Shown piece by piece: positions 6,565 through 58,249 of a stretch of DNA of 64,000 nucleotides; within the stretch, counting starts at the first letter, position 1; every line of letters begins with the position of its first letter. Source of the DNA: Heterodontus francisci (lineage: Eukaryota). The translations under genes were made by a program, and so were the position numbers. The stretch lies in contig NC_090376.1 in the NCBI RefSeq assembly GCF_036365525.1, forward strand, positions 121,495,388 to 121,559,387, in the 5' to 3' direction. The notes beneath the pieces are model-generated. The model saw nothing but the letters and a program-made list of their open reading frames with translations. It had not been told where the DNA came from and made no database searches.

Positions 6565-6614
6565 CTACAGAAGTAACACAAATATTCATAAGCCAGTCAC
6601 TTATTTGTTAATAT

Positions 6615-6895
6615 AAAAGCAAAATACTGCGGATGCTGGAAATCTGAAATAAAAACAAGAAATGCTGGAACCACTCAGCAGGTCTGGCAGCATCTGTGGA
6701 AAGAGAAGCAGAGTTAACATTTCGGGTCAGTGACCCTTCATCGGAACTGACAAATATTAGAAAAGTCACAGGTTATAAGCAAGTGAGGTGGGGGTGGGGC
6801 AAGAGATAACAAAGGAGGTCTAGATTGGACCAGGCCGCATAGCTGACCAAAAGGTCACGGAGCAAAGGCAAATAATATGTTAATGGTGTGTTGAA
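6615..6895 (-). mobile_element. Short 3' fragment of the same Penelope-like family
   Basis: Near-identical to 26477-26762; perfect 17-bp TSD CACTTATTTGTTAATAT at 6598-6614 and 6896-6912. Confidence 0.88.
6712..6748 (-). ncRNA. Minimal type I hammerhead ribozyme motif, core-mutated copy
   Basis: Minus strand AGUU-CCGAUGA-A-GGGUC-ACU-GACCC-GAAAU-GUU-AACU: perfect helices I and II, U4>C in the core, C>U in helix III. Confidence 0.65.
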
Positions 6896-7787
6896 CACTT
6901 ATTTGTTAATATCTTTTCAACAGAATTTTGCAAAGCTGTTTGCATCTATTGAACATTCCCTCCCTTTATTTTTATCCGATGGCTCCTCGCAACACCAAAA
7001 CAACTGGATGACAACATTCATAATCAGATAAGAGGAAAAATATCAGACTCCTGATATAGCGTACCAGGCCACCAATTCCCATTGTCAGAGCAGCAAGGAA
7101 TGCAGGATTATTGCCGCATTGCTGGCTGCCAACTCCTCTAAGTCTTTATGCCACCCCGAGTCAATGATTTAAGGACAGAAAAAGGAGAAAATTAGGGAGG
7201 GGTGAACAAAGCATACAAAAGGCAAAATCTTGCATTTAAATCATAAAATCATACAGCACAGAAGGAGGCCATTTAGCCCATTGTGCCTGTGCTGGCTCTT
7301 AGAAAGAGTTAGCCAATTAGTCCCAGACCCCTGCTCTTTCCCTGTAGCTCTGCAAATTTCGAAGTTTTTTTAATGTATTTATCCAATTCCCTTTTGAGAA
7401 TTACTACTGAATCTCCCTTTCAGGCAGTGCATTCCAAATCATCATAACCCGCTGAGTAAAAAAATAATCAGGTATTATTAACAACAATGAATAAGGAAAA
7501 ATTAATTAGCTCCTTTATATTAATTAAAATGCAGTGATGAAAATTGGGTCATCTACCTATACATTTTATTGCAGTTTAAAGACTTAATTAATATAAGAAA
7601 TTAGTTTTCAAAAAGTACTATGCAGCTGATATTCAAACAATAAAGTTCCAGTAATGTTAGCCATCTCCCATGGCATTGCTCAAACAGGAAAATCTCTCTT
7701 TCTCTTTCCATGTCATTGTCTCCATCCTTGTCATCCATTCTTTAATTGGAGGGTTTATTGCCCAGACATGCGAGTGATTTTGAGGAA

Positions 7788-15288: not shown

Positions 15289-15524
15289 CTGAGGGGAAGA
15301 CAAACACGAAAAAATAGTAGCTTAATGACTGATGAACACAGTTTATTCGAGTATTAATTGCCAGAAAGTTATCAATATTTAAAGCAGGAAAATTAATGTT
15401 TCATTCCCAGCACCTTTGCTAATATTCTCCCATCCTCTCCTGGCTGTATTAAGTCCATGAGCTAAGGCTACCCGTTAGTACCTGGTCCATGGGGACATTA
15501 TTCATGTGTATTATTCAGCCTTCC

Positions 15525-15768
15525 TTCTTTGGCCTCCTTATCTCGAGAGACAATGGATAAGCGCCTGGAGGTGGTCAGTGGTGTGTGGAGCAGCGCCTGG
15601 AGTGGCTATAAAGGCCAATTCTAGAGTGACAGGCTCTTCCACAGGTACTGCAGAAAAATTTGTTTGTCGGGGCTGTTAAACAGTTGGCTCTCCCCTTGCG
15701 CCTCTGTCTTTTTTCCTGCCAACTGCTAAGTCTCTGACTCGCCACACTTTAGCTCCGCCTTTATGGCT
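15525..15768 (-). mobile_element. Short 3' fragment of the same RTE family
   Basis: Matches about 20703-20950; candidate TSD GCCTTCC at 15518-15524 and 15769-15775. Confidence 0.85.
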
Positions 15769-20698: not shown

Positions 20699-21617
20699 TC
20701 TTCTTCTTTGGCCTCCTTATCTCGAGAGACAATGGGTAAGCGCCTGGAGGTGGTCAGTGGTGTGTGGAGCAGCGCCTGGAGTGGCTATAAAGGCCAATTC
20801 TGGAGTGACAGGCTCTTCCACAGGTGCTGCAGAAAAATGTGTTTGTCGGGGCTGTTACACAGTTGGCTCTCCCCTTGCGCTTTTGTCTTTTTTCCTGCCA
20901 ACTGCTAAGTCTCTTCGACTCGTCACACTTTAGCCCCGCCTTGATGGCTGCCCGCCAGCTCTGGCGAACGCTGGCAACTGACTCCCATGACTTGTGATCA
21001 ATGTCACAGGACTTCATGTCGCGTTTGCAGACGTCTTTAAAGCGGAGACATGGACGGCCGGTGGGTCTGATACCAGTGGCGAGCTCGCTGTACAATGTGT
21101 CTTTGGGGATCCTGCCATCTTCCATGCGGCTCACATAGCCAAGCCATCTCAAGCGCCGCTGACTCAGTAGTGTGTATAAGCTGGGGATGTTGGCCGCCTC
21201 GAGGACTTCTGTGTTGGAGATACGGTCCTGCCACCTGATGCCAAGTATTCTCCGGAGGCAGCGAAGATGGAATGAATTGAGAGGTCGCTCTTGGCTGACA
21301 TACGTTGTCCAGGCCTCGCTGCCATAGAACAAGGTACTGAGGACACAGGCCTGATACACTCGGACTTTTGTGTTCCGTGTCAGTGCGCCATTTTCCCACA
21401 CTCTCTTGGCCAGTCTGGACATAGCACTGGAAGCCTTTCCCATGCGCTTGTTGATTTCTGCATCTAGAGACAGGTTACTGGTGATAGTTGAGCCTAGGTA
21501 GGTGAACTCTTGAACCACTTCCAGAGCGTGGTCGCCAATATTGATGGATGGAGCATTTCTGACGTCCTGCCCCATGATGTTCTTTTTCTTGAGGCTGATG
21601 GTTCGGCCAAATTCAAT
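20699..21617 (-). mobile_element. 5'-truncated RTE-clade LINE (end of RT, C-terminal Cys/His motif, 3' UTR, (AAG)n tail)
   Basis: Open ORF LEVVQEFTYLGS...RRLRWLG...RIPK..LY.EL..G.R..GRP...CSTCGRACHSRIGLYSH. 13-bp TSD GCAAATACAAAAT at 20686-20698 and 21618-21630. Confidence 0.92.
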
Positions 21618-23652
21618 GCAAATACAAAATGCTAGACATAAAAACAAACCCATTAATGGTCCCAGCAATCTCAAATCGAGAGCCACAATCAGTTGGGCCC
21701 AACTGCAATCATCCCTCACAGGACCAGGTTTGCCAACTCTGGAGACTTAATTGTGTGACCTCCCACCTCTAACCAGCCTGTCTAGTCAAACACCCTTTTG
21801 TCCCATTTCCACAATATTTATAAGTGTTCAAAGGAAATTAAAAGAAACAAATGCCCCAACGGTTTTTCTGCTGAGTTGGTCACAGCAGTGTCCATAGAAT
21901 CATACAGCACAGAGACATGAGTTAAATATGTTTACTCCATGACACAAAATCATTTGAATCCTCAAAGGTCTTATGCATTTAAGCCTTCTAGCACCTGACA
22001 AGTTCACTCATTTGGTCATGAACAGGCTCAAGGGGTCATGCATAAGTTTGCTTAGCAATAGAGCTCCTTCCATATTTAACATCAAACAATGTCAGTGTCA
22101 CTGGTTTTTCCCTCATCAATTCTCTCCTTTCCTAAAGGCATTAACGACCCAGAGTGTTTCAATCTGTGGGCATCCACCAGTGCCATTATTCAAAGGTGAG
22201 CCTCAACAATGAGTACTGACCATGTTGGGGGTGGGAGGGGAGGTGAAGGGAGTGGCATCAGTCAACCCCAATTCTGCACTGACCCTATAGCTACATCTCA
22301 TAGCTATCCAATGAGATAAGTCCAATTCTACATGTTAAACAATAATTAAGAGGCAGAACCCTTCCTAACCCAGGGACACTGACATTCCCTGGATCATCTC
22401 TACTGCCAATGCAAGCTAACTTGGCACAAAGAACAAAGCTGACACTTTGCTGGTCTCTATGGCTCAGTTAAGCCCACAAATCACTGGAGAACCTTCAAGG
22501 GTCACTTGCTTCAACTACAAGCAAATAATACTGGCGATTTTAGGCTGGGTCAGTCTGAAGAGATGACAGGTGTTGGGGCACGTTTAGAGGCACATGTTTT
22601 ATGGACAAAAGAAGATTAAAGCATTTAGACCAGAAGCCTTATTGAAGTGCAGATAAGACATAGATTCTGATAAATAAATCAGACTGGAGGTACTTTGCCA
22701 AGATCATCAAGATCTAAACTACTACATAATACAGTATAATCAACAACATCCACTTATAGGAAAAAAGATGAATTTCAGGATAAGCATTTTTGCAACTGTG
22801 TTATAATGGTATCGTTGTCTCCTGGTTCAGGAAACAAACATCAGAAAATAGTAACATCAATGCCATTGTACTTTCCTTGTAGGAAGAGTAAGCAAGGATA
22901 TCACACTTAATTATCCTGCATTTAGTGGATATTAGAAAACAAATGTTTACTTAATTGCCATAAGATTACCTTGATACTGAGCGTCAACCTTCATTCTCCA
23001 CTACCAAAACAAATTTTAAATTTGGCAGATAACTCAAGACCTTTGAAATCATATCAGCAATTCTTTTTGGCCTGCTGAGAATATACATATCAATGTACGG
23101 GGCAACTGACTCTTAAATATACAACTGCAATGGCTGAATCAAAAAGAATAAACTATCATAGAAAGAATAGATCAACAAATGTAACCAAGATCAGCCAACG
23201 CCAAAGTGTGAGCTGTGTCCAACAATAACCAAGATGTCTTTTTCCCACTTAAAGCCATGCAGCCATATGTTTATAAGACTAACATTTATGTAGCACCTTT
23301 CACAACGTCAGAACATCCTATAGCACTTTACAGCCAGCAAAGTACTTTCAAAGTGTAGTCACTGCTGTAATGTAAGAAATGCTGCATCTAATTTGTGCAC
23401 AGCAAGCTTGCACAAACAGCAATGTGATAACAATCAGGTAATCTGTATTTTGTGATGTTGATTGAGGAATAAATATTGGCCCAGGAGACCAAGGAAAACT
23501 CCCCTGTTCTTCAAAATAGTGCCACAGGATCGTTTACATCCACTTGAGGGGTCAGACAGGGTCTTGATTTAATGCTTCATCTGAAAGACAGCACCTGTGA
23601 CAGTGCAGCACTCCCTCAATACTACACTGAGGTGTCAGCTGAGATTTTTGTG

Positions 23653-23686
<34 letters not shown>

Positions 23687-23779
23687 GAACGAGCCACCAT
23701 AAGCGACGAGTCATAAAAGAAGTTAAATTAATAAATGAAACTTTTTTTAAAACGTCACTGTTAAGCAGATAGACAGAGG

Positions 23780-24120: not shown

Positions 24121-26573
24121 GCTAGAATGAAATAACATGTGTATGTGTATGGCAATTAATAATAACAACACACTCTTTAGGAATGATACTGATTGTTTAT
24201 TTTTAAAGTGTAACCTGTTTTAATACATTTCTCTTTGATGATTAAATGAGTTTCAATCTGCTCCAAACTTTTCCTACATTGCAACAGTGACTACACTTCA
24301 AAAATACTTATTGGCTGCAAAGTTCTTTTCCTTTCTTCTTTCCTTCCTCCTTCCCTTCTTTTGTTCCTTCCTCCCTTTTTCCCTTCTCCTTTCTTTACTC
24401 CAATAAAAAAGAAGGATTTGCATTTCTATAGAGCCTTTCACTTTTGAAGTGCAGTCACTGTTGTAATGGAGGAAACGCAACAGTCAGTTTGCATACAGCA
24501 AGCTCCCACAAACAGAAACGTGATAATGACCAGATAATCTGTTCTATGATGTTGACTGAGGGACGAATATTGACCAGGATACCAGGGATAACGCCCCTGC
24601 TCTTCAAAACAGTGCCACAGGATCTGTTACATCCACCTGAGAAGGCAGACAGGGTCTCAGTTTAACATCTCATTCGAAAGACAACACCTCTAACAGTGCA
24701 GCACTCCCTCAGTAGTGCACTGGAGTGTCAGCCTTGATTTTTGTGCTCAGATCTCTAGAGTGGGAGTGAACCCATAACCTTCTGAGTCAGAGGCAATAGT
24801 GCTACCAACTGAACCATGGGGATTAAAAAAATGGATATCCATAGTGCTGGCATGTGAAGGTTTTATCTCTTGTTCTCTTTCTCTAATGGCAAACTGTTCA
24901 CATTTTATCATGGCACAGGAAACCGGTATTTGGGACTTTGCTATCACTGAATGGAAAACCAAACTGTTCTTCAGCCCTTCTCAGCACAGTTCCAAGCTCA
25001 AGTTTCCATCTATCTGAAAACTGACATAATTGAACAGGTCAGAGGCTCCTTGCATCTTCAATTAAACATTCTGAGAAGCTCTTCAATAAGTCAGGCAGAA
25101 TGACAATACTACATTTAGGAAGCATTCACTATTATTCCATTATTCAACATTACAAATAGAGAATTTTAAAAAGAAGTGCTGCAATCTTTTCAGAAATGCC
25201 TGGAACAAATTCTCCAAAATCATTCACTGCAATGCCATCCAACACATCATTGATGATAACATGAAATAAGATAGATAACAGCAGGCAAGGTTTCCTCAAT
25301 TCTTCTTCAAGGGTAATCAGTAGACTCAATCACAGATGATATGGTCAGTGACATTCGTTTCTCTGCAGCCAACGTCATAAAGGAACCAAATCCAGAGACT
25401 GATACTCGCTCATCCATTAAGTCCAATCTTGTAAAGGAACCTGCAAAGATAAGGAGAATTATTAAGTGAAAGCAATGCTTGTAGCCTCTTGAGAACTATC
25501 AAGAGTCTCACTTCCTTGCCATTTCTCCAAACACTTCTAAATGTTCTTTATAATATTCATCCACTTCCCTTTTAAAAGCTCATATAGATTTTGCTTCCAA
25601 CACTATTTCTAATAGTGTGTTCCATGTCTTAACAATCTTCTACATTAAAAAAATCCTGATGTCTTGCTTTATTCTCTTGCTGTTGATCTTTAATTAACAC
25701 CTACTAGTTCTGAACTCATCCATGAGTAGAAATTTTTCAAATTTTTAATACCTCTATTGGATCTCCAAATAAAATGCTTCTTTAGTCTGTCCTTATAAAA
25801 AGTAAAAAGAAAGACTTGCATTTATATAGCGCTTTTTACGACCACTGGATGTCTCAAAGCACTTTGCAGCAAATTGAGTACTTTTGAAGAAAAGTCACTA
25901 TTGTAATGTAGGAAATGCAGCAGCAAGCTTCCACAAACAGCAATGTGATAATGACCAGATAATCTCTTTTTGTGAAGTTGCTTGAGGGATAAATATTGGA
26001 CAGGACACTGTGGAGAACTCCCCTGCTCTTTTTCCAACTAGTACCGTGGGATTTTTCGGTCTACCTGAGAGGATAGATGGGGCCCTTGGTTTAACATCTC
26101 ATCTGAAAGATGGCACCTCTGACAGTGCAGCACTCCCTCAGTACTGCACTGGAATGTCTGCCTTGCTCTTTGTGCTCAAGTCCTGGAGTGAACTTTGTGA
26201 TTCAGAGGTGAGAGTGCTATCAACTGAGCCACAGCTGACACAGCTCAACACTGGGTTCATCTCATTGAATCTCTTGTGCACTTTCTCTATGGTCCTAATA
26301 TTGTTCGTGAAGTAAGATGCCCAAAACTGCAGCTTAACCGATGATTTGCATAGATTGAGCTTTACCTCTTTACTTTTGTACTCGGTGCCCTTATTTATAA
26401 AAGCTAGAATCCCATTAGCTTTTCCATAGCTTGACAATTTGTTCTCCAACCTTGAACTGAACCCCTAAGTTTTTCTAAAAGCAAAATACTGCGGATGCTG
26501 GAAATCTGAAATAAAAACAAGAAATGCTGGAAATACTCAGCAGGTCTGGCAGCATCTGTGGAGAGAGAAGCAG

Positions 26574-26610
26574 AGGTAACGTTTCAGGTCAGTGACCCTT
26601 CATCAGAACT
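26574..26610 (-). ncRNA. Minimal type I hammerhead ribozyme motif in the Penelope terminal region
   Basis: Minus strand AGUU-CUGAUGA-A-GGGUC-ACU-GACCU-GAAAC-GUU-ACCU: intact catalytic core, 5-bp helix II, palindromic loopless helix III (ACGU), one mismatch in helix I. Confidence 0.75.
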
Positions 26611-27141
26611 GGCAAATATTAGAAATGTGAAAGGTTATAAGCAAGTAAAGCGGGGTTGGAGCAAGAGATAACAAAGGAGAAGGTGTAGATAGGTCAAGGT
26701 CACATAATAGCTGACCAGAAGGTCATGGAGCAAAGGCAAACAATATGTTAATGGTGTGTTGAAAGACAAAGTGTTAGTACAGATAGGGTGTTAACGGACT
26801 GAAAATTGAACAGCCGCAAGTACAAACATGAAAAAAAACAGTGGGTAAGCAAACTGAACAAACTAAGATGAAATAAGATAAAATAAACTCAATGTTCAGT
26901 CTGGCAGGCAGTAGTGTGCCTAATCGGTAAATGAGATGCTGTTCCTCGAGCTTGCATTGATGTTCACTGGAACACTGCAGCAATCCCAGGACAGAGATGT
27001 GAGCATGAGAGCAGGAGGGAGTGTTGAAATGGCAAGCAACCGGAAGCTCAGGGTCATGCTTTCGGGCTGAGCGGAGGTGTTCTGCAAAGCGGTCACCCAG
27101 TCTGCGTTTGGTCTCCCCAATATAGAGGAGACCACATTGTG

Positions 27142-27893
27142 CATGGGTAAGGCTTCCACTGCTATGTTCAGACTGGCCAAGAGAGTGTGGGAAAATGGCG
27201 CACTGACACGGAACACAAAAGTCCGAGTGTATCAGGCCTGTGTCCTCAGTACCTTGCTCTACGGCAGCGAGGCCTGGACAACGTATGCCAGCCAAGAGCG
27301 ACGTCTCAATTCATTCCATCTTCGCTGCCTTCGGAGAATACTTGGCATCAGGTGGCAGGACTATATCTCCAACACAGAAGTCCTTGAAGCGGCCAACATC
27401 CCCAGCTTATACACACTACTGAGTCAGCGGCGCTTGAGATGGCTTGGCCATGTGAGCCGCATGGAAGATGGCAGGATCCCCAAAGACACATTGTACAGCG
27501 AGCTCGCCACTGGTATCAGACCCACCGGCCGTCCATGTCTCCGTTATAAAGACGTCTGCAAACGCGACATGAAATCATGTGACATTGATCACAAGTCGTG
27601 GGAGTCAGTTGCCAGCATTCGCCAGAGCTGGCGGGCAGCCATAAAGACAGGGCTAAATTGTGGCGAGTCGAAGAGACTTAGTAGTTGGCAGGAAAAAAGA
27701 CAGAGGCGCAAGGGGAGAGCCAACTGTGCAACAGCCCCAACAAACAAATTTCTCTGCAGCACCTGTGGAAGAGCCTGTCACTCCAGAATTGGCCTTTATA
27801 GCCACTCCAGGCGCTGCTTCACAAACCACTGACCACCTCCAGGCGCGTATCCATTGTCTCTCGAGATAAGGAGGCCCAAAGAAAGAAAAAAGA
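27142..27893 (+). mobile_element. 5'-truncated RTE LINE of the same family, nested in the Penelope element
   Basis: ORF nearly identical to 20754-21719; A/G-rich tail; 8-bp TSD ACATTGTG at 27134-27141 and 27894-27901. Confidence 0.92.
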
Positions 27894-28914
27894 ACATTGT
27901 GAGCAGCGAATACAGTATACTACATTGAAAGAAGTACAGGTAAATCGCTGCTTCACCTGAAAGGAGTGTTTGGGGCCTGGTATAGTGAGGAGAGAGGAGG
28001 TAAATGGGCAGGTATTACACCTCCTGCGATTGCAGGGGAAGGTGCCGTGTGAAGGGGACGAGGTGGTGGGGGTAATGGAGGAGTGGACCAGGGTATCGCG
28101 GAGGGAATGATCCCTTTGGAATGTTGACAGGGGAAGGGAGGGGAAGATGCGTTTGGCAGTGGAGTTTTCCCTAAGTTTTTCTGTTCATCTACTCGATTAA
28201 TCTTTTACCATTATTGTCTATATCTTGTTTTTAGTCTTACTCTCTAAATGAATCAGCTCAAGCTTCATCTGACATCTAACTGCCCAATCTCTTAACCTGT
28301 TTAAGTTCTCCTTCAGTTATTTACAGTCTTCTTCACAGTTATTATGCTCCCTGTTTTCAAGTCACCTGCCATGTCTAGTTCACTTATATAGATTGTGAAG
28401 AACAGTGGTCCTATCACTGTCCTAAACAATGTTTACATTCTTCCTTTCCAAAAACAAACATCCTATTAACGAAGAATCTCTGCTTTCTGATCTTTAGCCA
28501 TCCATGCTGACACACACCCTTTAATACCATGTGCCTTAAATTTGTCAGCAAGCATCCCATATGCACCTTTTAAGACATCATTACAAAATCCACAAAAACA
28601 ACGCCCACTCATTTCCTTTATCAGTACACTCCATTATTTCCTCAAATAACTCTATTAAATTTTCCAGACATGACTTACCTTTTACAAACTCCCACTGACT
28701 GTCCTAATTAACCCATGACTTTCTAGGTGAATATCAACATTTAAACAAGAACAGCAGGTTGTGTTCATCTTCAGGAACACTTTCCAAGAATTGCAATCAT
28801 AGACTGATTCCATATCTTATTTTTGCAGTTTTATCAACTTGTCCTCCCCCTCTTAAAGACTTATGTATCTGAGCATCTTTACTGCTGAGAGGCAGATGTC
28901 TGATACCTTTTTCA

Positions 28915-39736: not shown

Positions 39737-41686
39737 TCAGTCAAGCAAAACCATGAATCCCTCAATCTTCCACCGATTGCATTTCGCTCGGTGATCACCG
39801 TATTCCACACTGCTCAAAGCACTTCGACTTAAATACTTACTGAATATCCTAACCATGGTGTTTATAACCCGTCCTGGCATTTTTAGTCGCGAGCAAAAAA
39901 TAAAACCCAAACAAATTATTTCAAATGAGCCATCCTAAATCAAAGTCTTGGGCTGTGGACGGAAATGCGCTTGACAAAATTGATTCGCGTTTAGATTTGT
40001 GTGATTAATGCGAGTGTGCAAAGTCCTTGGTTTCCAGGTCCTGTATTGCTCGGGTCCCTTTTTCTGAATGGAAATAGTCACATTAACAGAATCGCAGCTG
40101 CCTTTCTCAGCTGATTGCAACACACGGAAAGGAAATAGTTCATCGCGTTTACACAATGGCAGAATGTAATTAAAGACTCTGCTTAGACTTGCAGAATTGA
40201 TCTGTATTAAATCAATTGATCCAAACCAATTCTAGAAATAAAATAACCGAACAATGATTAACCAACACGAGCCCCAGTTTAGGGCCATCGCGTAGATATC
40301 CATACGTAGGGATTTTTAACAGTCCCTGGATAATTGTTTATGTTCCTCTGCACTTATTTATGGGAATACACGTTCTAAAATTGGCAATTGTATCTGGAGC
40401 GTTGAAAATTTCCCGTCTGAACTGTGTATTTTACTGAGCGGCGGAACCAGGAGGTGCGAATCACACAGGAATCTTGCTGAATACGGGGAGGGGAGGTTGG
40501 GGAGAATGTAACATTACACTCTATTAGCATTTAAATTGTTTCCGAAAAGATATGTAAACCGCTTCGAATTCTGAAGGATAGCTACTCTGAGGAAATAAAT
40601 TTCGCAGTTGAAAACCTTGCTAAAGACTTGTCTGGCACCTATGACTAATCATACACTTGAGAGAACAATAGGCCTTCATCCTCTTACCACTCTCTGAGAA
40701 GCAAATAGTTATTGTGTGTGTGTTTTAAAAAAAATCTTATTAATTAATTACCGCTTTTGTTTTTAACTCCTTTGAAGAACCAGTGATTTAGAAAGTAATA
40801 AAATGATTAAAAATAATGAACCCCACACGGGTGAAGCTCGGATGAAATTTCTCAGTTGCCACGTTTTACACACAAGAACCTCTGTCCTTATATTACATGC
40901 TGACCCATATTCAAAGTTTATGCCCCAAATACAGGTCACTGCCGATGACATAATCCTACACACTCGAGAGAAATATTATGCAATACAACATAACTGTAAC
41001 TCACAGCTCCTGTCCTTGAACAGTTTTTTTCTGGTTTCTAACAGTAGATGTGTTTATCTGATATATGTTAAACTTGTGGCCCAAGTTAACATTCCCAAAT
41101 TTAAAATTTCCAAATATTTTCATGTATTAATTCTTTTTTTTAACATGCGAAACATCCATAATTCAATTGTCTATCATAGGACCATAACTAAGCAGAATTT
41201 GTGTAATGTATTTATTCCGTAAATCACCAAATAGAAGATTTTATTATTTTTGGCATTTAACTTGAGTATTTTATTAAGGATCGAACAGCGATCGGAACAG
41301 ATTTAACGTTAAAATGTGTCACAATAATTTCTAAACTATTTATTTGCCGCACATCTGTTTCCCCAAATCACAAGCATTAAAAATTACTCCTATTGTTACA
41401 ATGTGAAACATCCAGAATGGAGATTTCTCAAGTGGTTTAAAAAGTGTTTTGGAAAATAAATTTTCATTGTAGAAGGCAGTCACATGAATGTTATTTTGCG
41501 GTTTACAGTCCTTTTTATATAAAAAAATCATTATTGCGGTGCACGGAAAAATACAAACGAACCATCAAATGACTGAGGAATGTGGAGAGATCCGCGCTCT
41601 TACTGGGCAGCGCAAAGGTGGCGGCAGTCCGAAGGGGTTCGGGGGGTGGGGGGTTGTTGGAGAGGAAGGGAGACTCCGGGTTTTAC

Positions 41687-42686
41687 CTGTATGGGTGCGT
41701 TTGTGGATCTTTAAGTTCTCCGACCTGGCGAAAACTTTTCCGCAGCCCGGGAAGGGGCAAGGGAACGGCTTTTCCCCCGTGTGGACCCTGATGTGATTCA
41801 CCAGTTTGTATTTCGCTTTGAAAGGTTTTCCCTCCCGGGCGCAATCTTCCCAGAAGCAGATATGGTTGGTCTGCTCGGGTCCACCGACATGTTCCACCGT
41901 GACGTGGGTGACCAGCTCATGCATGGTGCTGAAAGTTTTGTTGCAGGACTTTTTGGGGTTGCTCATCTGCTCGGGATCGACCCACTTGCAGATGAGCTCC
42001 TGTTTGATGGGCTGCCGCATGTATCTGAAGAAGGCTCCGGGACCGTGGTGAGCTGCCATATTCATGCTCATGTTCATATTCATGTGGCCGTAGTTGTGGT
42101 GGTGATGGAGCTGCGCCGCCGAGTAAGGGTCAGTCCTGGGACACTGGTCCGAGCGGCCAAACACTTCCCCAGGCAGCCCCAAGCGCATCTGCCCGTTGAG
42201 GACGTGCGTGTTTGGAGACGAGTGGGATCCTCCTTGCTCGTGGATGCCGGGGAACAAGATGTGTCCCGAGGTGTCTGAATGCGGGTGATGGAGACTGGCC
42301 GGGTTGGGTCCGAAGATGCCGTGCTGGTTGGAGCCCGCGCTTGAATCGCTGAAGCCGCGACTGCGGAAGATAAAATCCCGGGTGGAGTTGAACGCGGCGC
42401 CCGAGTAAGAGCTGACATGGGCGGCGTGGGGAGCCAGGGCGGACGCGTAGCCCGAGCCAGCGGCCGCTTGCGAGCTGAAAGCCGAGCTCTGGCCGGCCGA
42501 CGAGAGGTCATGGTGGACTCCACCGTTCAGCTTGAAAGCCCCCATGTGCGCTGAGTCGACGAAGGTGTTTTGAGACAAGCCCAGGTCCCGGTCCGACATG
42601 TCGGCGGTGGAGTGGTGATGATGGTGATGTCTGGCAAAAGTGCCCACCCCGAGGGTCGGGAACTGGGGTCCCGCATCCAGCAACAT
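41687..42686 (-). CDS. ZIC2: Zinc finger protein ZIC2, coding exon 1 (N-terminus, ZOC motif, ZF-NC, ZF1-3)
   Basis: [22 protein letters not shown]...[12 protein letters not shown]...[19 protein letters not shown]...HKRTHTG. ZIC2-type rather than ZIC1-type residues ([30 protein letters not shown]). 1000 nt, phase-1 donor CAG|GTAAAA. Confidence 0.95.
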
Positions 42687-42744
42687 GCTTCTAAAACCAG
42701 GGGAGAAAACAAACAGATCTCTCCCCCCCTCCCCCCCACCCACC

Positions 42745-42793
42745 CACACAGCCACACACACACAAAAACACACGCACACACACACACACACAC
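42745..42793. repeat. Imperfect (CA)n/(TG)n microsatellite in the ZIC2 5' leader
   Basis: Seen directly, about 60-105 nt upstream of the ATG; next to a C-rich tract (G-rich on the sense strand). Confidence 0.9.
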
Positions 42794-43199
42794 GGGGATC
42801 AACCGGCAACTTCAGAGACGCCTTCTTCTTGTTATTGTTTCTGATCGATTCCGAAAGAAGCCAAAACGCACCAGTTCAGAAATTCAACAGATCGAGACAA
42901 ACGATTCGCCTTGCTCTTTAACAGCTTCTGTTTTTCTTGAGGGGGGGAAAAAGCGATGACAAGTAGACCGAGCCAAATTATCACGTACAACTTTTTTTGT
43001 CCTCTAAAGCAGTTTTTATTGCGATCACGTAGAAGTTTTTGTTTTGCAGCAAGAATTCCCACGGAGTAACCGTCTTCTTTGAAGCCTCTTCTCTGTCTGT
43101 TCGTCTCTCTCACTCTCTCTCTCAGTAGATGCAGTGTTGCCAGTGATAGCGGTAATCAAAAAGGCAGTTAAATGAGAAGTAGAGATAAGAGCATCCTTA

Positions 43200-52940: not shown

Positions 52941-52958
52941 ATGGATAGGCTTGTGTAG
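52941..52958 (+). promoter_or_regulatory. Upstream ORF (MDRLV*) ending 2 nt before the ZIC5 ATG
   Basis: ATG GAT AGG CTT GTG TAG tt ATG, read directly from the sequence. Confidence 0.65.
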
Positions 52959-52960
52959 TT

Positions 52961-53963
52961 ATGGAAGCCGCGTTAAGCAAGCGGAATCCGGGACTGAGAT
53001 TAGCGGACTTGGCAGCAAACAAATACCATCCCCATCAGAATATGTCAGGCTTCCCGGGGCTGGGGAGCCATACACACATCCACCCTGGGGAGATGAACAA
53101 CGATCCCAGCGTGACTCTCACCCCTTTCGGGCCCGAGCACACTGCTCTCAAACTCAGTCCATCTCAACACATGGCTGGACATCCCGAAACGCAGACAGCG
53201 GCGATTTTCGGCTCTGCACAGAACTCGGTCAGCTACCCAGCGGGTCATTCCCACTCAGGCTACGCAAGCGGCAGGGACTACATCCTCAGGAGAGATCTCT
53301 CAGCATCTGCCATGCATGGACTGACTGAACAGCACCCATCTTCTTCCTCCCTTCACCATCAGCACCACCATCACCACGGCGTGTTTCTATCCACAACAGG
53401 TAGTTACGGACACCCGGAGATCTTCCCGGGGCTCCACGAGCAGTCTGCACCGGGATCCCACCACACTTTAAACGGACAAATGCGCCTGGGGTTGCCGGGG
53501 GATCTCTATAGGCCAGAGCATTTTAGCCACAGAGCTGAACACTATCCGGCCTCTTCGCTGCACTCTTACAACTCCATGAACTTAAATGTTAACCTGGCAG
53601 CGGCTCACCATGGAGCCGGTGCATTCTTTAGGTATATGAGACAGCCCATCAAGCAAGAGTTAATCTGCAAGTGGATTGACCAAGAGGAGACTTCAAAGAA
53701 ACCTTGTTCTAAAACTTTCAGCACCATGCATGAGTTAGTAAACCATGTCACTGTGGAGCATGTCGGAGGACCCGAACAGAGCGTTCACATTTGTTACTGG
53801 GAGGATTGCCCCAGAGAAGGGAAACCATTCAAGGCGAAATACAAACTGGTAAATCATATCAGAGTTCACACAGGCGAAAAGCCTTTCCCGTGCCCGTTCC
53901 CGGCCTGTGGTAAGGTATTCGCACGCTCGGAAAACTTGAAGATTCATAAAAGGACTCACACAG
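52961..53963 (+). CDS. ZIC5: Zinc finger protein ZIC5, coding exon 1
   Basis: [19 protein letters not shown] matches the ZIC5 N-terminus (MEPPLSKRNPPALRLADLA, recalled). Contains [11 protein letters not shown] and ZF1-3; 1003 nt with donor CAG|GTTAGT; head-to-head with ZIC2. Confidence 0.95.
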
Positions 53964-56900
53964 GTTAGTGCTTCTAAACAGTTTTCGCTTTGTTCCAAAG
54001 GCCCTCAACAAGCACATCTTGCTATATCGCGGGCAAAGCACTGTTAAGTTAAAAAGAAAAGTGATTACTTTTCCTGAATTGCGAATCTAACGAGTATCAT
54101 TCTCAATATCTCACGAGTACGCTCGTAAACTAATATACTTTATCTACACAGGCTCACAAATTTTAGAATGTGCAACTAAAGCAACGCAGTTTCATTTGAA
54201 AGATTCTGGAGATTTGGGATGTAAGCTAACAGGCCGGGAACATTTTCAAACGGGTTTAAAACTGTGGCGTTCCTTTGTTTCCTGCCCGGGAATGACGATT
54301 CAAGATGTCACAAACTTAAAATGAAGCGACCAGCGCGATTATTGGAAGCGCTGTCAGGGCTGGTTTTAAGAGGCGAAGGCTCCAATTAAAGTCATATATT
54401 TCAATCCAACTTAAAAAAAAAGAATGATCAGGATAAAGTGAAAGACAAGAATTATAAATTAGGATAGGAAGATTTCAACGCAGTCTTGTGAAAGGCTTAG
54501 GAAAAGGAAGGGAATCAAGTTTGTAATCAGACCGAACAAGTTGGACATTTTGGTGTTGAAATATGGTCTTTAAGAGTCTCTGAGAGAAACTATGCCGATA
54601 CACTTACAGGCAGCATGCTAGTGTTCGACTTCATAATTAGAATCATGAAGATTTTTGTGATCTAACGGCAGTAAACACGCCGAAGGATGAATCACTGCAT
54701 CTAAATCCCCCGAGGGTGCGCCCTATCTAACTTGAACAAAGTTTACTACGGATCTCTCGTATATCGTTTTAGTTCCTGGCGAAATCAGGTAACCTGGTCA
54801 GAATTTATTGTTGCAGACAGATATTATCCCTTGGAGAATGTTTATTGACGTATGCTTTGCTTAATTGTTTCTACTGATTTATAGCGTGCTGTCACAGGGT
54901 ATAAACAGATAGTGTTACACCTATTCGTTTAATGCCTTCTTAATTTGTTGTTTAAATGTTAAAGCAAATGGTCCATGACTGCTCTGATTACAGATTTTAT
55001 CTAAAGAATATGTTGCACAAGTTTTTTTTTTAAAAAGCATGGCGAAGTGGGGAGTGGCAGCGAACTGGGGACCTGTATTCCAGCTGTGTTAGTAAAGAGC
55101 CAATTGTGGGATAGATCCTCCATCTCTACTATAAGAGGAATGTGGAAAGAAATGAACAAGTTTTAAAACTTCAATTTTATTTAAATCGAGGTATTCTATC
55201 TTTCCAGCACTGTATGCTAAAGCAGGAATTATAAATGAGGACAGTACAACTCACTGGAGTAGTGAACACTCCTGTTTCCTTGTGTCTTTTCAAGGCCTTT
55301 TCCTGGTTGCAAACTCGAGCTATAAAATGGCCATTTGTTAACCTTTTGAATAGTGTCCACTTCGACCTAAAAAAAACTGGAGTTCAGGCAGGAAACGTTA
55401 ACTGGTCACATAATAATTACTTTAAAAAATGGGTCATAGATTAAAAATAACACAAAAATGGTAATTAGCGTCACACAGGGAAGCAGAATTACTTTCTTCA
55501 CTCCAGTGAAGCTACAAGGTAAAGTGCTCCTAAACTTCGAGTCCATCCCAACAAATGGAAATGCTGTTGCTACCAGTATGTTAAGGAGTAGTTGCAGTAT
55601 ATAGTTCGCCGCAGAAACACAACTGCGCTGCAGGAGCTAGTTTCGCCACTGCATTTCAAAGACTGTGTTTGGAAAAATAAAATACAGATATATGTCAATG
55701 TAACCTCAGGCATAAGCACGCACAATATGGCGATGAGAGCCAAGTGTGTTGGTAAAGTTAATTACCATAATTCTGTGCTTTAAAAAATTGTGTTTTCGAA
55801 TGGATATGTGTTATCCGCCTTTTGGTTTCAGGGTTGCAGAATTGATAAGATTGGGAAGCCCTAAGTGTTCAGCCACATGCGTTGTCTTACCCTGGGGTTT
55901 GCTGAGAGTGTGTGTTGTGTTTGATACATCAAGTAGAATGGGCTTGTGTTTGTGTTGTCCAAACGAAGTCATTGATGTTATGAAAGCCACATCCTTATAA
56001 GAGGAAATTCTACTCTGGCTCTGCTTTGTATTGATTCACACAAAAAATGTGGTCTAAACAATGCAGCTTAAATAGGACGATGTCTTGGACCACGAGGAAA
56101 TATGACCACCAAACTGCACAGGTTCATAATGACAGGAAAGTGATGCCAGGTTCAAATGGGTTCTGTTTACTCGCAAAGTCAGGAACGAGGTTATGTTTGA
56201 GGGCGAATCCGTTTTTATCAGTCAAGTGCTTTCTGCATCTCAGCTCACGCAAAACGCAACTCGGCAATCAAAAGCTGTCAGTGTCTTTTTCCTAACATGC
56301 AGCTTGGGGCGAGAAACTCCGAAGGAACCGCCAGGCCAAACGCCAGGCGCATTCGAAGTGCTAGTTTATGACCAGCCTGTGGGATTCATGCACTGCATCG
56401 AGCTGCAGCAGAGCTAAATATAAATATTTACAATATACAAATAGAACCGAGCTGGCGGAGAACTGGAAGGCGCCGATGGTCACTGCATTAGTTCATCTCC
56501 ATCTCAAACCCTACGTAAGAATATTAGCACGAAATGCATCTAAAACAGGGAGATTTTTTAAAAAAAAGATTCCGCCAAGTGCATGTCAGATTCTAAGATA
56601 TTGAATGCAAGTAAGTTTCAACCATATTAGAACGAACAGTCCAAATATTTTAATTATGCAAAATGCGTGTTCTTACAAAGATGGCCACCAATCCTGGTGT
56701 TATTGTCCACATTCCATTTAACTTCAAGCACAGGATCGAAATAAACAATAACGAATGTGATATGAATCCGATTTCCATTGAAAACCTAATCTAAGAATAA
56801 ACATGTAAGCGAGATAACTGGCTGGCTAGTTTTTGAGAAGTTGGCCTATATTTGTGGCGTTGCTCCTGGTGATTTGGGAAATGTTAATGTAACATGCCCT

Positions 56901-57672: not shown

Positions 57673-57815
57673 CTTACTTATGTAACCAAGACTAAAATCA
57701 TTGCAATAAACGTTTGAATTCTGAACAGTCTACACAATCAGTAGAAAAATGAAAAAATTACTGCGTAAAACCCCTCGATTTTGTCCCCTCATTGTGTTTT
57801 TCTTATTATTTGCAG

Positions 57816-58249
57816 GAGAGAAGCCTTTTAAATGCGAGTTCGATGGCTGTGACAGAAAATTTGCCAATAGCAGTGACAGGAAAAAGCATTCTCATGTCCA
57901 TACCAGTGATAAGCCGTACAACTGTAAAGTGAGAGGCTGTGACAAGTCTTACACTCATCCTAGTTCGCTTCGCAAACACATGAAGGTGCATTGCAAATCT
58001 CCCCCACCTCCTCTCAGCTCTGGCTACGAGCTCTCAAACACATCCTTGGGGATGGTGTCTCCGGCCTCAGAACCAGTCAGGGGCCGCACTGCCAGCGTCT
58101 CTTCGCAAGTCACCAACCTCAATGAATGGTATGTCTGCCAGGGGAGCGGGGCTGCCAATAGCCTCCACACACCTTCAAGCAATGGCACCTCATCCGACAC
58201 CGAGGATGAGGAGGCCTACAGGAACTCTGATCCCAGGACTATGCTCTGA
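57816..58249 (+). CDS. ZIC5: ZIC5 coding exon 2 (ZF4-5 and C-terminus ...[11 protein letters not shown]...[16 protein letters not shown]...)
   Basis: tatttgcAG acceptor, phase 1; ZIC5-specific tail after NEWYV. The two exons total 1437 nt = 478 aa plus stop. Confidence 0.96.

Follow-up and report, generated by a model that had tools for sequence, protein, structure and literature searches.

A minimal hammerhead motif at the likely RNA start of a very abundant Penelope-like element in Heterodontus francisci

The stretch of Heterodontus francisci DNA that we analysed (64,000 nt of contig NC_090376.1, positions 121,495,388 to 121,559,387; the window) carries a minimal hammerhead sequence in the pseudo-LTR (pLTR) of a very abundant, apparently Neptune-type Penelope-like element (PLE). 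The family copies suggest that the element RNA starts at helix I of the hammerhead, that it serves as a template uncut, and that reverse transcription is primed in the tail, a reading to which we give a probability of about 70%. The arrangement of motif and element has already been published; the fresh points are a lineage with a U4C core and the uncut-template signal in the copy ends. The window motif itself is merely one more copy.

Read directly, the minus strand from 26610 to 26574 is AGUU-CUGAUGA-A-[GGGUC acu GACCU]-GAAAC-GUU-ACCU, exactly as quoted in the original prediction, and it lies on the strand of the GIY-YIG remnant and 3' of it, as had been claimed (Table 1). The sequence contains the core expected of PLE minimal hammerheads, C3 U4 G5 A6 N7 G8 A9 with G12 A13 A14 A15.1, and its cleavage triplet U16.1-H17 is GUU. 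In helix I the 3' strand ACCU pairs at three of four positions; the C at 1.2 is private to this copy, since 76 of 79 aligned family copies have A there. A full descriptor including both helices and the palindrome matched once in the window, at 26610, and in none of 100 Markov controls. The motif is no chance match, and the descriptor match and the pLTR location support the predicted minimal type I fold with palindromic helix III in a PLE. A loose core pattern gave four matches in the window against 1.9 expected, which is not significant alone, and the Rfam hammerhead families gave no match in the window at the gathering threshold. An alternative cut at an upstream GUC was rejected: it is not followed by a matching core, and the triplet varies between subfamilies.

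Table 1. Coordinates of the hammerhead motifs, their host elements and related features. Positions are those of the window except for the arrays.
Feature	Position	Strand	Remarks
Hammerhead motif, minimal type I, predicted	26574..26610	-	canonical core U4/U7, G-U closing helix II, ACGU palindrome
Helix I 5' strand	26610-26607	-	numbered on motif sequence
Core C3-A9	26606-26600	-	CUGAUGA
Extra A after A9	26599	-	
Helix II	26598-26594 with 26590-26586	-	5 bp, closing pair G-U, loop ACU
G12-A15.1	26585-26582	-	GAAA
Palindromic ACGU (helix III)	26582-26579	-	no loop
U17	26578	-	predicted cut 26578/26577
Helix I 5' border, start of short family copies	26607..26612	-	inferred RNA 5' end
Region downstream of cut site, +1 to +101	26477..26577	-	family end points near +68, +102
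Neptune-type Penelope-like element (putative), 5'-truncated	26477..28168	-	Cys linker, GIY-YIG remnant, pseudo-LTR, hammerhead, tail
14-bp target-site duplication, tail side	26463..26476	.	
14-bp target-site duplication, truncated side	28169..28182	.	
LINE 3' fragment, unrelated, inside PLE ORF	27142..27893	+	between Cys linker and GIY-YIG; 8-bp duplication 27134-27141 / 27894-27901
Second family copy, 281 bp	6615..6895	-	17-bp duplication 6598-6614 / 6896-6912
Hammerhead motif, second copy	6712..6748	-	C4 core, G-C closing helix II, full helix I, palindrome broken
Intact tandem PLE arrays	C1:104.03-104.05 Mb, C1:23.22 Mb, C2:19.30 Mb		L141-L144

The 1.7-kb host element is 94% identical to intact tandem units in its ORF part and 85% in its pLTR. 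It has a C-X4-C-X2-C linker, and its GIY-YIG remnant matches Pfam with E 0.066. Assigned from the Cys linker rather than from an RT tree, the element points to the Neptune/Nematis type; we take it to be Neptune rather than Nematis by host range. The LINE fragment in its ORF, which we presume to be RTE-like, belongs to a young family with three window pieces (27142-27893 on the plus strand, 20703-21746 on the minus strand, and 15524-15735) that are 95-97% alike and match DUF6451. An older dispersed repeat of ~400 bp, probably a SINE, has many copies, including 359-716, 23284-23696, 24404-24816 and 25802-26231. Zic zinc-finger genes (Pfam zf_ZIC) stand head-to-head in the window, 41565-42875 on the minus strand against 52949-53968 and 57725-58249 on the plus strand; the N-termini of the pair presumably resemble Zic2 and Zic5.

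We can hardly credit that the window copy is an active ribozyme co-opted by the host downstream of the Zic gene. Its core is canonical and it shares its strand with the Zic ORF 41565-42875, but its helix I mismatch is private, the copy is 96-98% identical to ordinary family copies, and the closest family copy detected on its strand within the window is damaged and lies 19.9 kb off. The window copy is a lone and, with its helix I mismatch, probably dead hammerhead, and likely an inactive passenger of a truncated insertion. The prediction had also drawn on the second window copy for the helix I partner AACU. That copy does supply it, but its core position 4 is C (U4C) and its palindrome, lost through a CpG change, reads AUGU; both differences had been omitted.

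Conservation was assessed on copies chosen by a downstream anchor, 79 of 100 being in register and 21 dropped as truncated or gapped. U16.1 is present in 79/79, U17 in 77/79 and the extra A after A9 in 75/79, and position 7 varies freely (U 49, A 28). Inherited G5A or G12A changes were not found among the 79 aligned copies. The pair G10.1-C11.1 stays paired in the family and is often not G-C, being G-U in the window copy and G-C in the intact arrays. This closing pair of helix II is G-U in 45 copies, A-U in 22, G-C in 9 and A-C in none; the absence of A-C has a P of 0.04 if copies are independent, which the lineages are not, and the covariation concerns one varying pair in few lineages. The CpG of the palindrome (CG 53, TG 11, CA 11) decays evenly after insertion, so the source elements have kept it. 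At the other two CpG sites (TG 60 vs CA 4; TG 66 vs CA 1) the dominant change is the C-to-T form, the one that hammerheads tolerate. The ratio of TG 60 to CA 4 rules out CpG decay as the origin of the U4 form. Nearest-neighbour calculations for dimers gave −6.5 kcal/mol for the double-hammerhead fold of the window copy, against −23.0 for the lowest-energy fold, and −13.7 against −24.8 kcal/mol for a young unit. Because the model does not score core contacts, these energies show at most a possible need for folding help, a need already described for PLE hammerheads (PMC4209133; PMC11167929).

The family is very large in the 6.0 Gb of genome searched. The best 40 of 1,501 candidates, the window copy among them, were 96-100% identical. 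The 29-nt core of the window copy has 4,454 exact genome matches, its own subfamily numbers 5,804 copies by exact counts, and two downstream anchors occur in 25,035 and 35,347 exact copies genome-wide. Otherwise perfect motifs, the counts of which are biased toward young copies, number 14,720 with U4 (the canonical core) and 33,419 with C4. That the genome has been seeded with many such ribozymes, as had been proposed, is borne out by the 14,720 perfect canonical motifs as far as number goes. The phrase overstates the likely activity because most dispersed copies stand alone and damage is frequent, with 22/79 retaining the core, the two helices and the palindrome together. Damaged family copies are also amplified inside larger repeats with a period of ~2.07 kb at C45:17.35-19.12 Mb, and a damaged, identical family variant occurs on many small unplaced contigs (C334-C1960). 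The family is present in assembled-contig sets, mostly presumed RNA, in which contigs cannot show starts, ends, strand or level.

A tail-to-ORF junction pattern found in 1,735 copies led to three intact head-to-tail arrays. Their period is 3290-3296 bp and their open ORFs are 904-924 aa long, each a single ORF with RT, a C-terminal GIY-YIG domain and the C-X4-C-X2-C linker. Both Pfam matches (RVT_1, E 2e-5; GIY-YIG, E 0.002) are below the curated cut-offs. There is one motif per unit (every 3.3 kb); it sits ~140 nt before the next ORF begins, C3 lying 168 nt ahead of the first ATG, and helix I is 4 bp in the family and in the intact units. Tandem pLTR units could supply the partner for a dimer. 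Features of EN+ PLEs are present: tandem pLTRs, inverted partners and two 3' end classes ~34 nt apart. Each unit further has an extra open frame of 200 aa on the same strand, overlapping the main ORF, which is perhaps a by-product of codon bias.

In the three arrays the search pattern matched nine motifs, every one of which reads CCGAAGA with a G10.1-C11.1 pair; one further pLTR, in L142, gave no match. An identical nearest neighbour over 57 nt was found for 66% of C4 copies vs 38% of U4 copies (n = 26), and C4 copies look younger. The U4C branch is the most numerous and likely the youngest of the family. Twenty junction copies comprised 8 with C4, 4 with U4 and 8 without a motif; two of the 20 had an open ORF, both C4 and both from one array. 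No intact U4 source element was found in the few loci inspected. The original prediction had named a family consensus lacking CUGAUGA as evidence against itself. This core does occur in the perfect canonical motifs, but the commonest perfect form and the array motifs are CCGAAGA, so the prediction stands only in part.

Known already as a natural change, U4C reduces in vitro activity considerably but still leaves enough for viroid infectivity (PMC3088659). The change is expected to weaken cutting. Our literature searches turned up no report of U4C in PLEs, although such variants may be listed by Lunse et al. 2017 in their work on dimers of PLE hammerheads. The fold might now act mainly as a protein-binding or promoter element, catalysis being a relic either in the youngest lineage alone or in every lineage. 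The 33,419 perfect C4 motifs, the 9/9 C4 motifs in intact arrays and the lowered activity would fit this, as would the spread of Naiad PLEs without hammerheads and the core mutants that had no effect on insertion in vitro (PMC11167929). We nevertheless consider it quite unlikely, as the rest of the core is conserved along with the two helices and the palindrome, G5A and G12A are not inherited, and the remaining U4C activity suffices for a viroid.

The reading that uncut RNA is copied was examined through the ends of the copies at the first 100 anchor matches on contig C1, with A1.1 as +1; this anchor misses the youngest subfamily. The 5' ends lay beyond -36 in 36 copies, at -35 to -28 in 39, inside the motif in 18, within 3 nt of the cut in 1 and further down in 6, with a peak at -34 to -32, the first letters of helix I. 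The 3' ends fell at +56 to +75 in 43 copies, at +95 to +112 in 51 and beyond in 6, clustering near +68 and +102. A duplication of at least 8 nt was found for 21/100 mapped copies only, so many junctions are not pinned down. We infer that the end points near +68 and +102 would mark the PLE tail and starts of reverse transcription. In the window (26477-26545) and in the L141 pLTR both 3' end classes are preceded by a repeated 11-nt motif and a T-run. The tail region 26477-26545 is predicted to be able to form a hairpin, a candidate RT-binding site.

For the C4 branch, 60 regions picked from the list of matches held 51 distinct motifs, of which 27 do not extend into the upstream pLTR. A few of these 27 are long inverted or slightly longer pieces, and long C4 copies are undercounted because identical contexts were merged. 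Head-to-head stub pairs joined near the hammerhead 5' border were seen at L037, L083, L110, L189, L205 and L234. These often have one short-tail and one long-tail end, as expected if both DNA strands are primed.

A genome-wide proxy for starts at the cut matched 210 of 35,347 copies, vs 111 at +4 and 189 at -3, without excess at the cut. Inspection of 25 of the 210 matches, partly by eye, yielded 2 clean +1 starts with duplication and ~2 unclear cases, the remaining ones being inverted partners or internal deletions. In about one third of the matches listed for one of these proxy searches, the helix I 5' strand is joined directly to the 3' strand, which could be a deletion of the whole core between two GTT triplets. 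Neither the end mapping of 100 copies nor the genome-wide proxy revealed a cleavage footprint in genomic copies. Since 39/100 starts are at the 5' border of the motif and 1 is near the cut, with no proxy excess, the RNA that was copied had likely not been cut, and its 5' end likely lies at the ribozyme.

A published model has tandem hammerheads dimerise to cleave the precursor, after which reverse transcriptase copies the unit-length product, either linear or circular (PMC4209133). In its favour are the arrays with their 3.3-kb spacing of motifs, the 2 of 25 inspected copies that start cleanly at +1, and the consideration that religation into a circle would erase any trace of the cut. If the template were linear and cut, however, stubs beginning at +1 would be expected, and 1/100 was found with no genome-wide excess; a circle does not account for the pile-up at -33; and the intact arrays are U4C. 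We regard this model as improbable for the present family.

The border at helix I is probably the transcription start, judged indirectly from where short copies begin. We take its context at 26607-26612 to be initiator-like. A precedes the border G in 18/27 short copies, and a check for a cap-derived G, with G in 7 of the 27, did not demonstrate one. An exon end would also give the A before G, and the border could instead be a splice acceptor or a stop of RT or repair. It reads ...CAG/UU after a pyrimidine-rich stretch, and the intron of D. virilis Penelope ends at the helix I 5' end (PMC4209133). This explanation is unlikely: the duplications found abut the border or leave a few nt, without shared exon sequence; inverted partner pieces stop at the same border; and no recurrent spliced joint at the border was seen among the contig joints listed. 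An internal Inr promoter has been described for D. virilis Penelope (PMC2377424).

Under the favoured reading of an uncut template, the element RNA would begin at helix I, probably by a Pol II start, and RT would be primed within uncut RNA at the tail sites. Use of the front site would yield stubs of 100-135 bp, and use of the rear one long truncated copies such as the window element. Cleavage, judging from published work, would be slow and need a dimer formed by the ACGU palindrome or the element's protein. It would take off the first 33 nt instead of generating the template. Self-cutting is probably weaker still in the U4C branch, which spreads well nonetheless. A tentative extension, which we hold to be possible and still doubtful, is that the hammerhead, as the first 33-37 nt of the element RNA, would act as a slow self-decapping off-switch rather than as a template maker. 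Because only uncut RNA would be copied, the U4C lineage could have out-spread its canonical relatives and would now supply the intact sources. If so, the family would amount to a natural test of the function of PLE hammerheads. Their role is stated as unclear in the literature, and the family offers two inexpensive ways into it: the ends of its copies, which would mark the start of the template RNA and point to an uncut template, and two sister lineages one core base apart, with intact arrays for the variant.

Minimal hammerheads in the pLTRs of metazoan PLEs were described by Cervera and De la Pena 2014 (PMC4209133), with reports from fishes, coelacanth, frog and reptiles. The H. francisci motifs resemble these in being type I without a helix III loop, in the palindromic 15.2-16.2, the extra nucleotide after A9 and the 4-bp helix I, and in their pLTR location, thousands of single copies and some close inverted pairs. 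They differ in that G-U or A-U often replaces the highly conserved G10.1-C11.1, and apparently also in the U4C majority branch and in copy starts at helix I. Our literature search yielded no report of a PLE hammerhead from a shark, and sharks do not appear in the text of PMC4209133 that was searched; its supplements and those of the bioRxiv papers may hold examples. Non-LTR retrozymes, PLE-related hammerhead repeats, have been reported in one chondrichthyan genome (bioRxiv 10.64898/2026.07.22.740005). Unlike these short ORF-less tandem repeats, the tandem unit of the present family is 3.3 kb long and coding; its short copies are dispersed or in inverted pairs and are pieces of an autonomous element.

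The architecture agrees with that of Neptune/Nematis EN+ PLEs (Craig et al. 2021, bioRxiv 10.1101/2021.04.23.441226), which have RT, a CX2-5CxxC linker, C-terminal GIY-YIG, tandem pLTRs, inverted 5'-truncated partners and a 30-40-bp tail. For the anole Poseidon PLE (Anolis carolinensis, Frangieh et al. 2024, PMC11167929) an uncut RNA template and two internal RT starts were found in vitro, and the hammerhead cuts only with the element's protein. The H. francisci family is similar in having the hammerhead near the ORF start, two RT starts that would define the tail, and almost no copy starts at the cut, where Poseidon has no RNA ends. In Poseidon, however, the hammerhead overlaps the start codon, whereas here it lies wholly in the 5' leader; and the family described here, known from genomic copies alone, has a Cys linker that points to Neptune.
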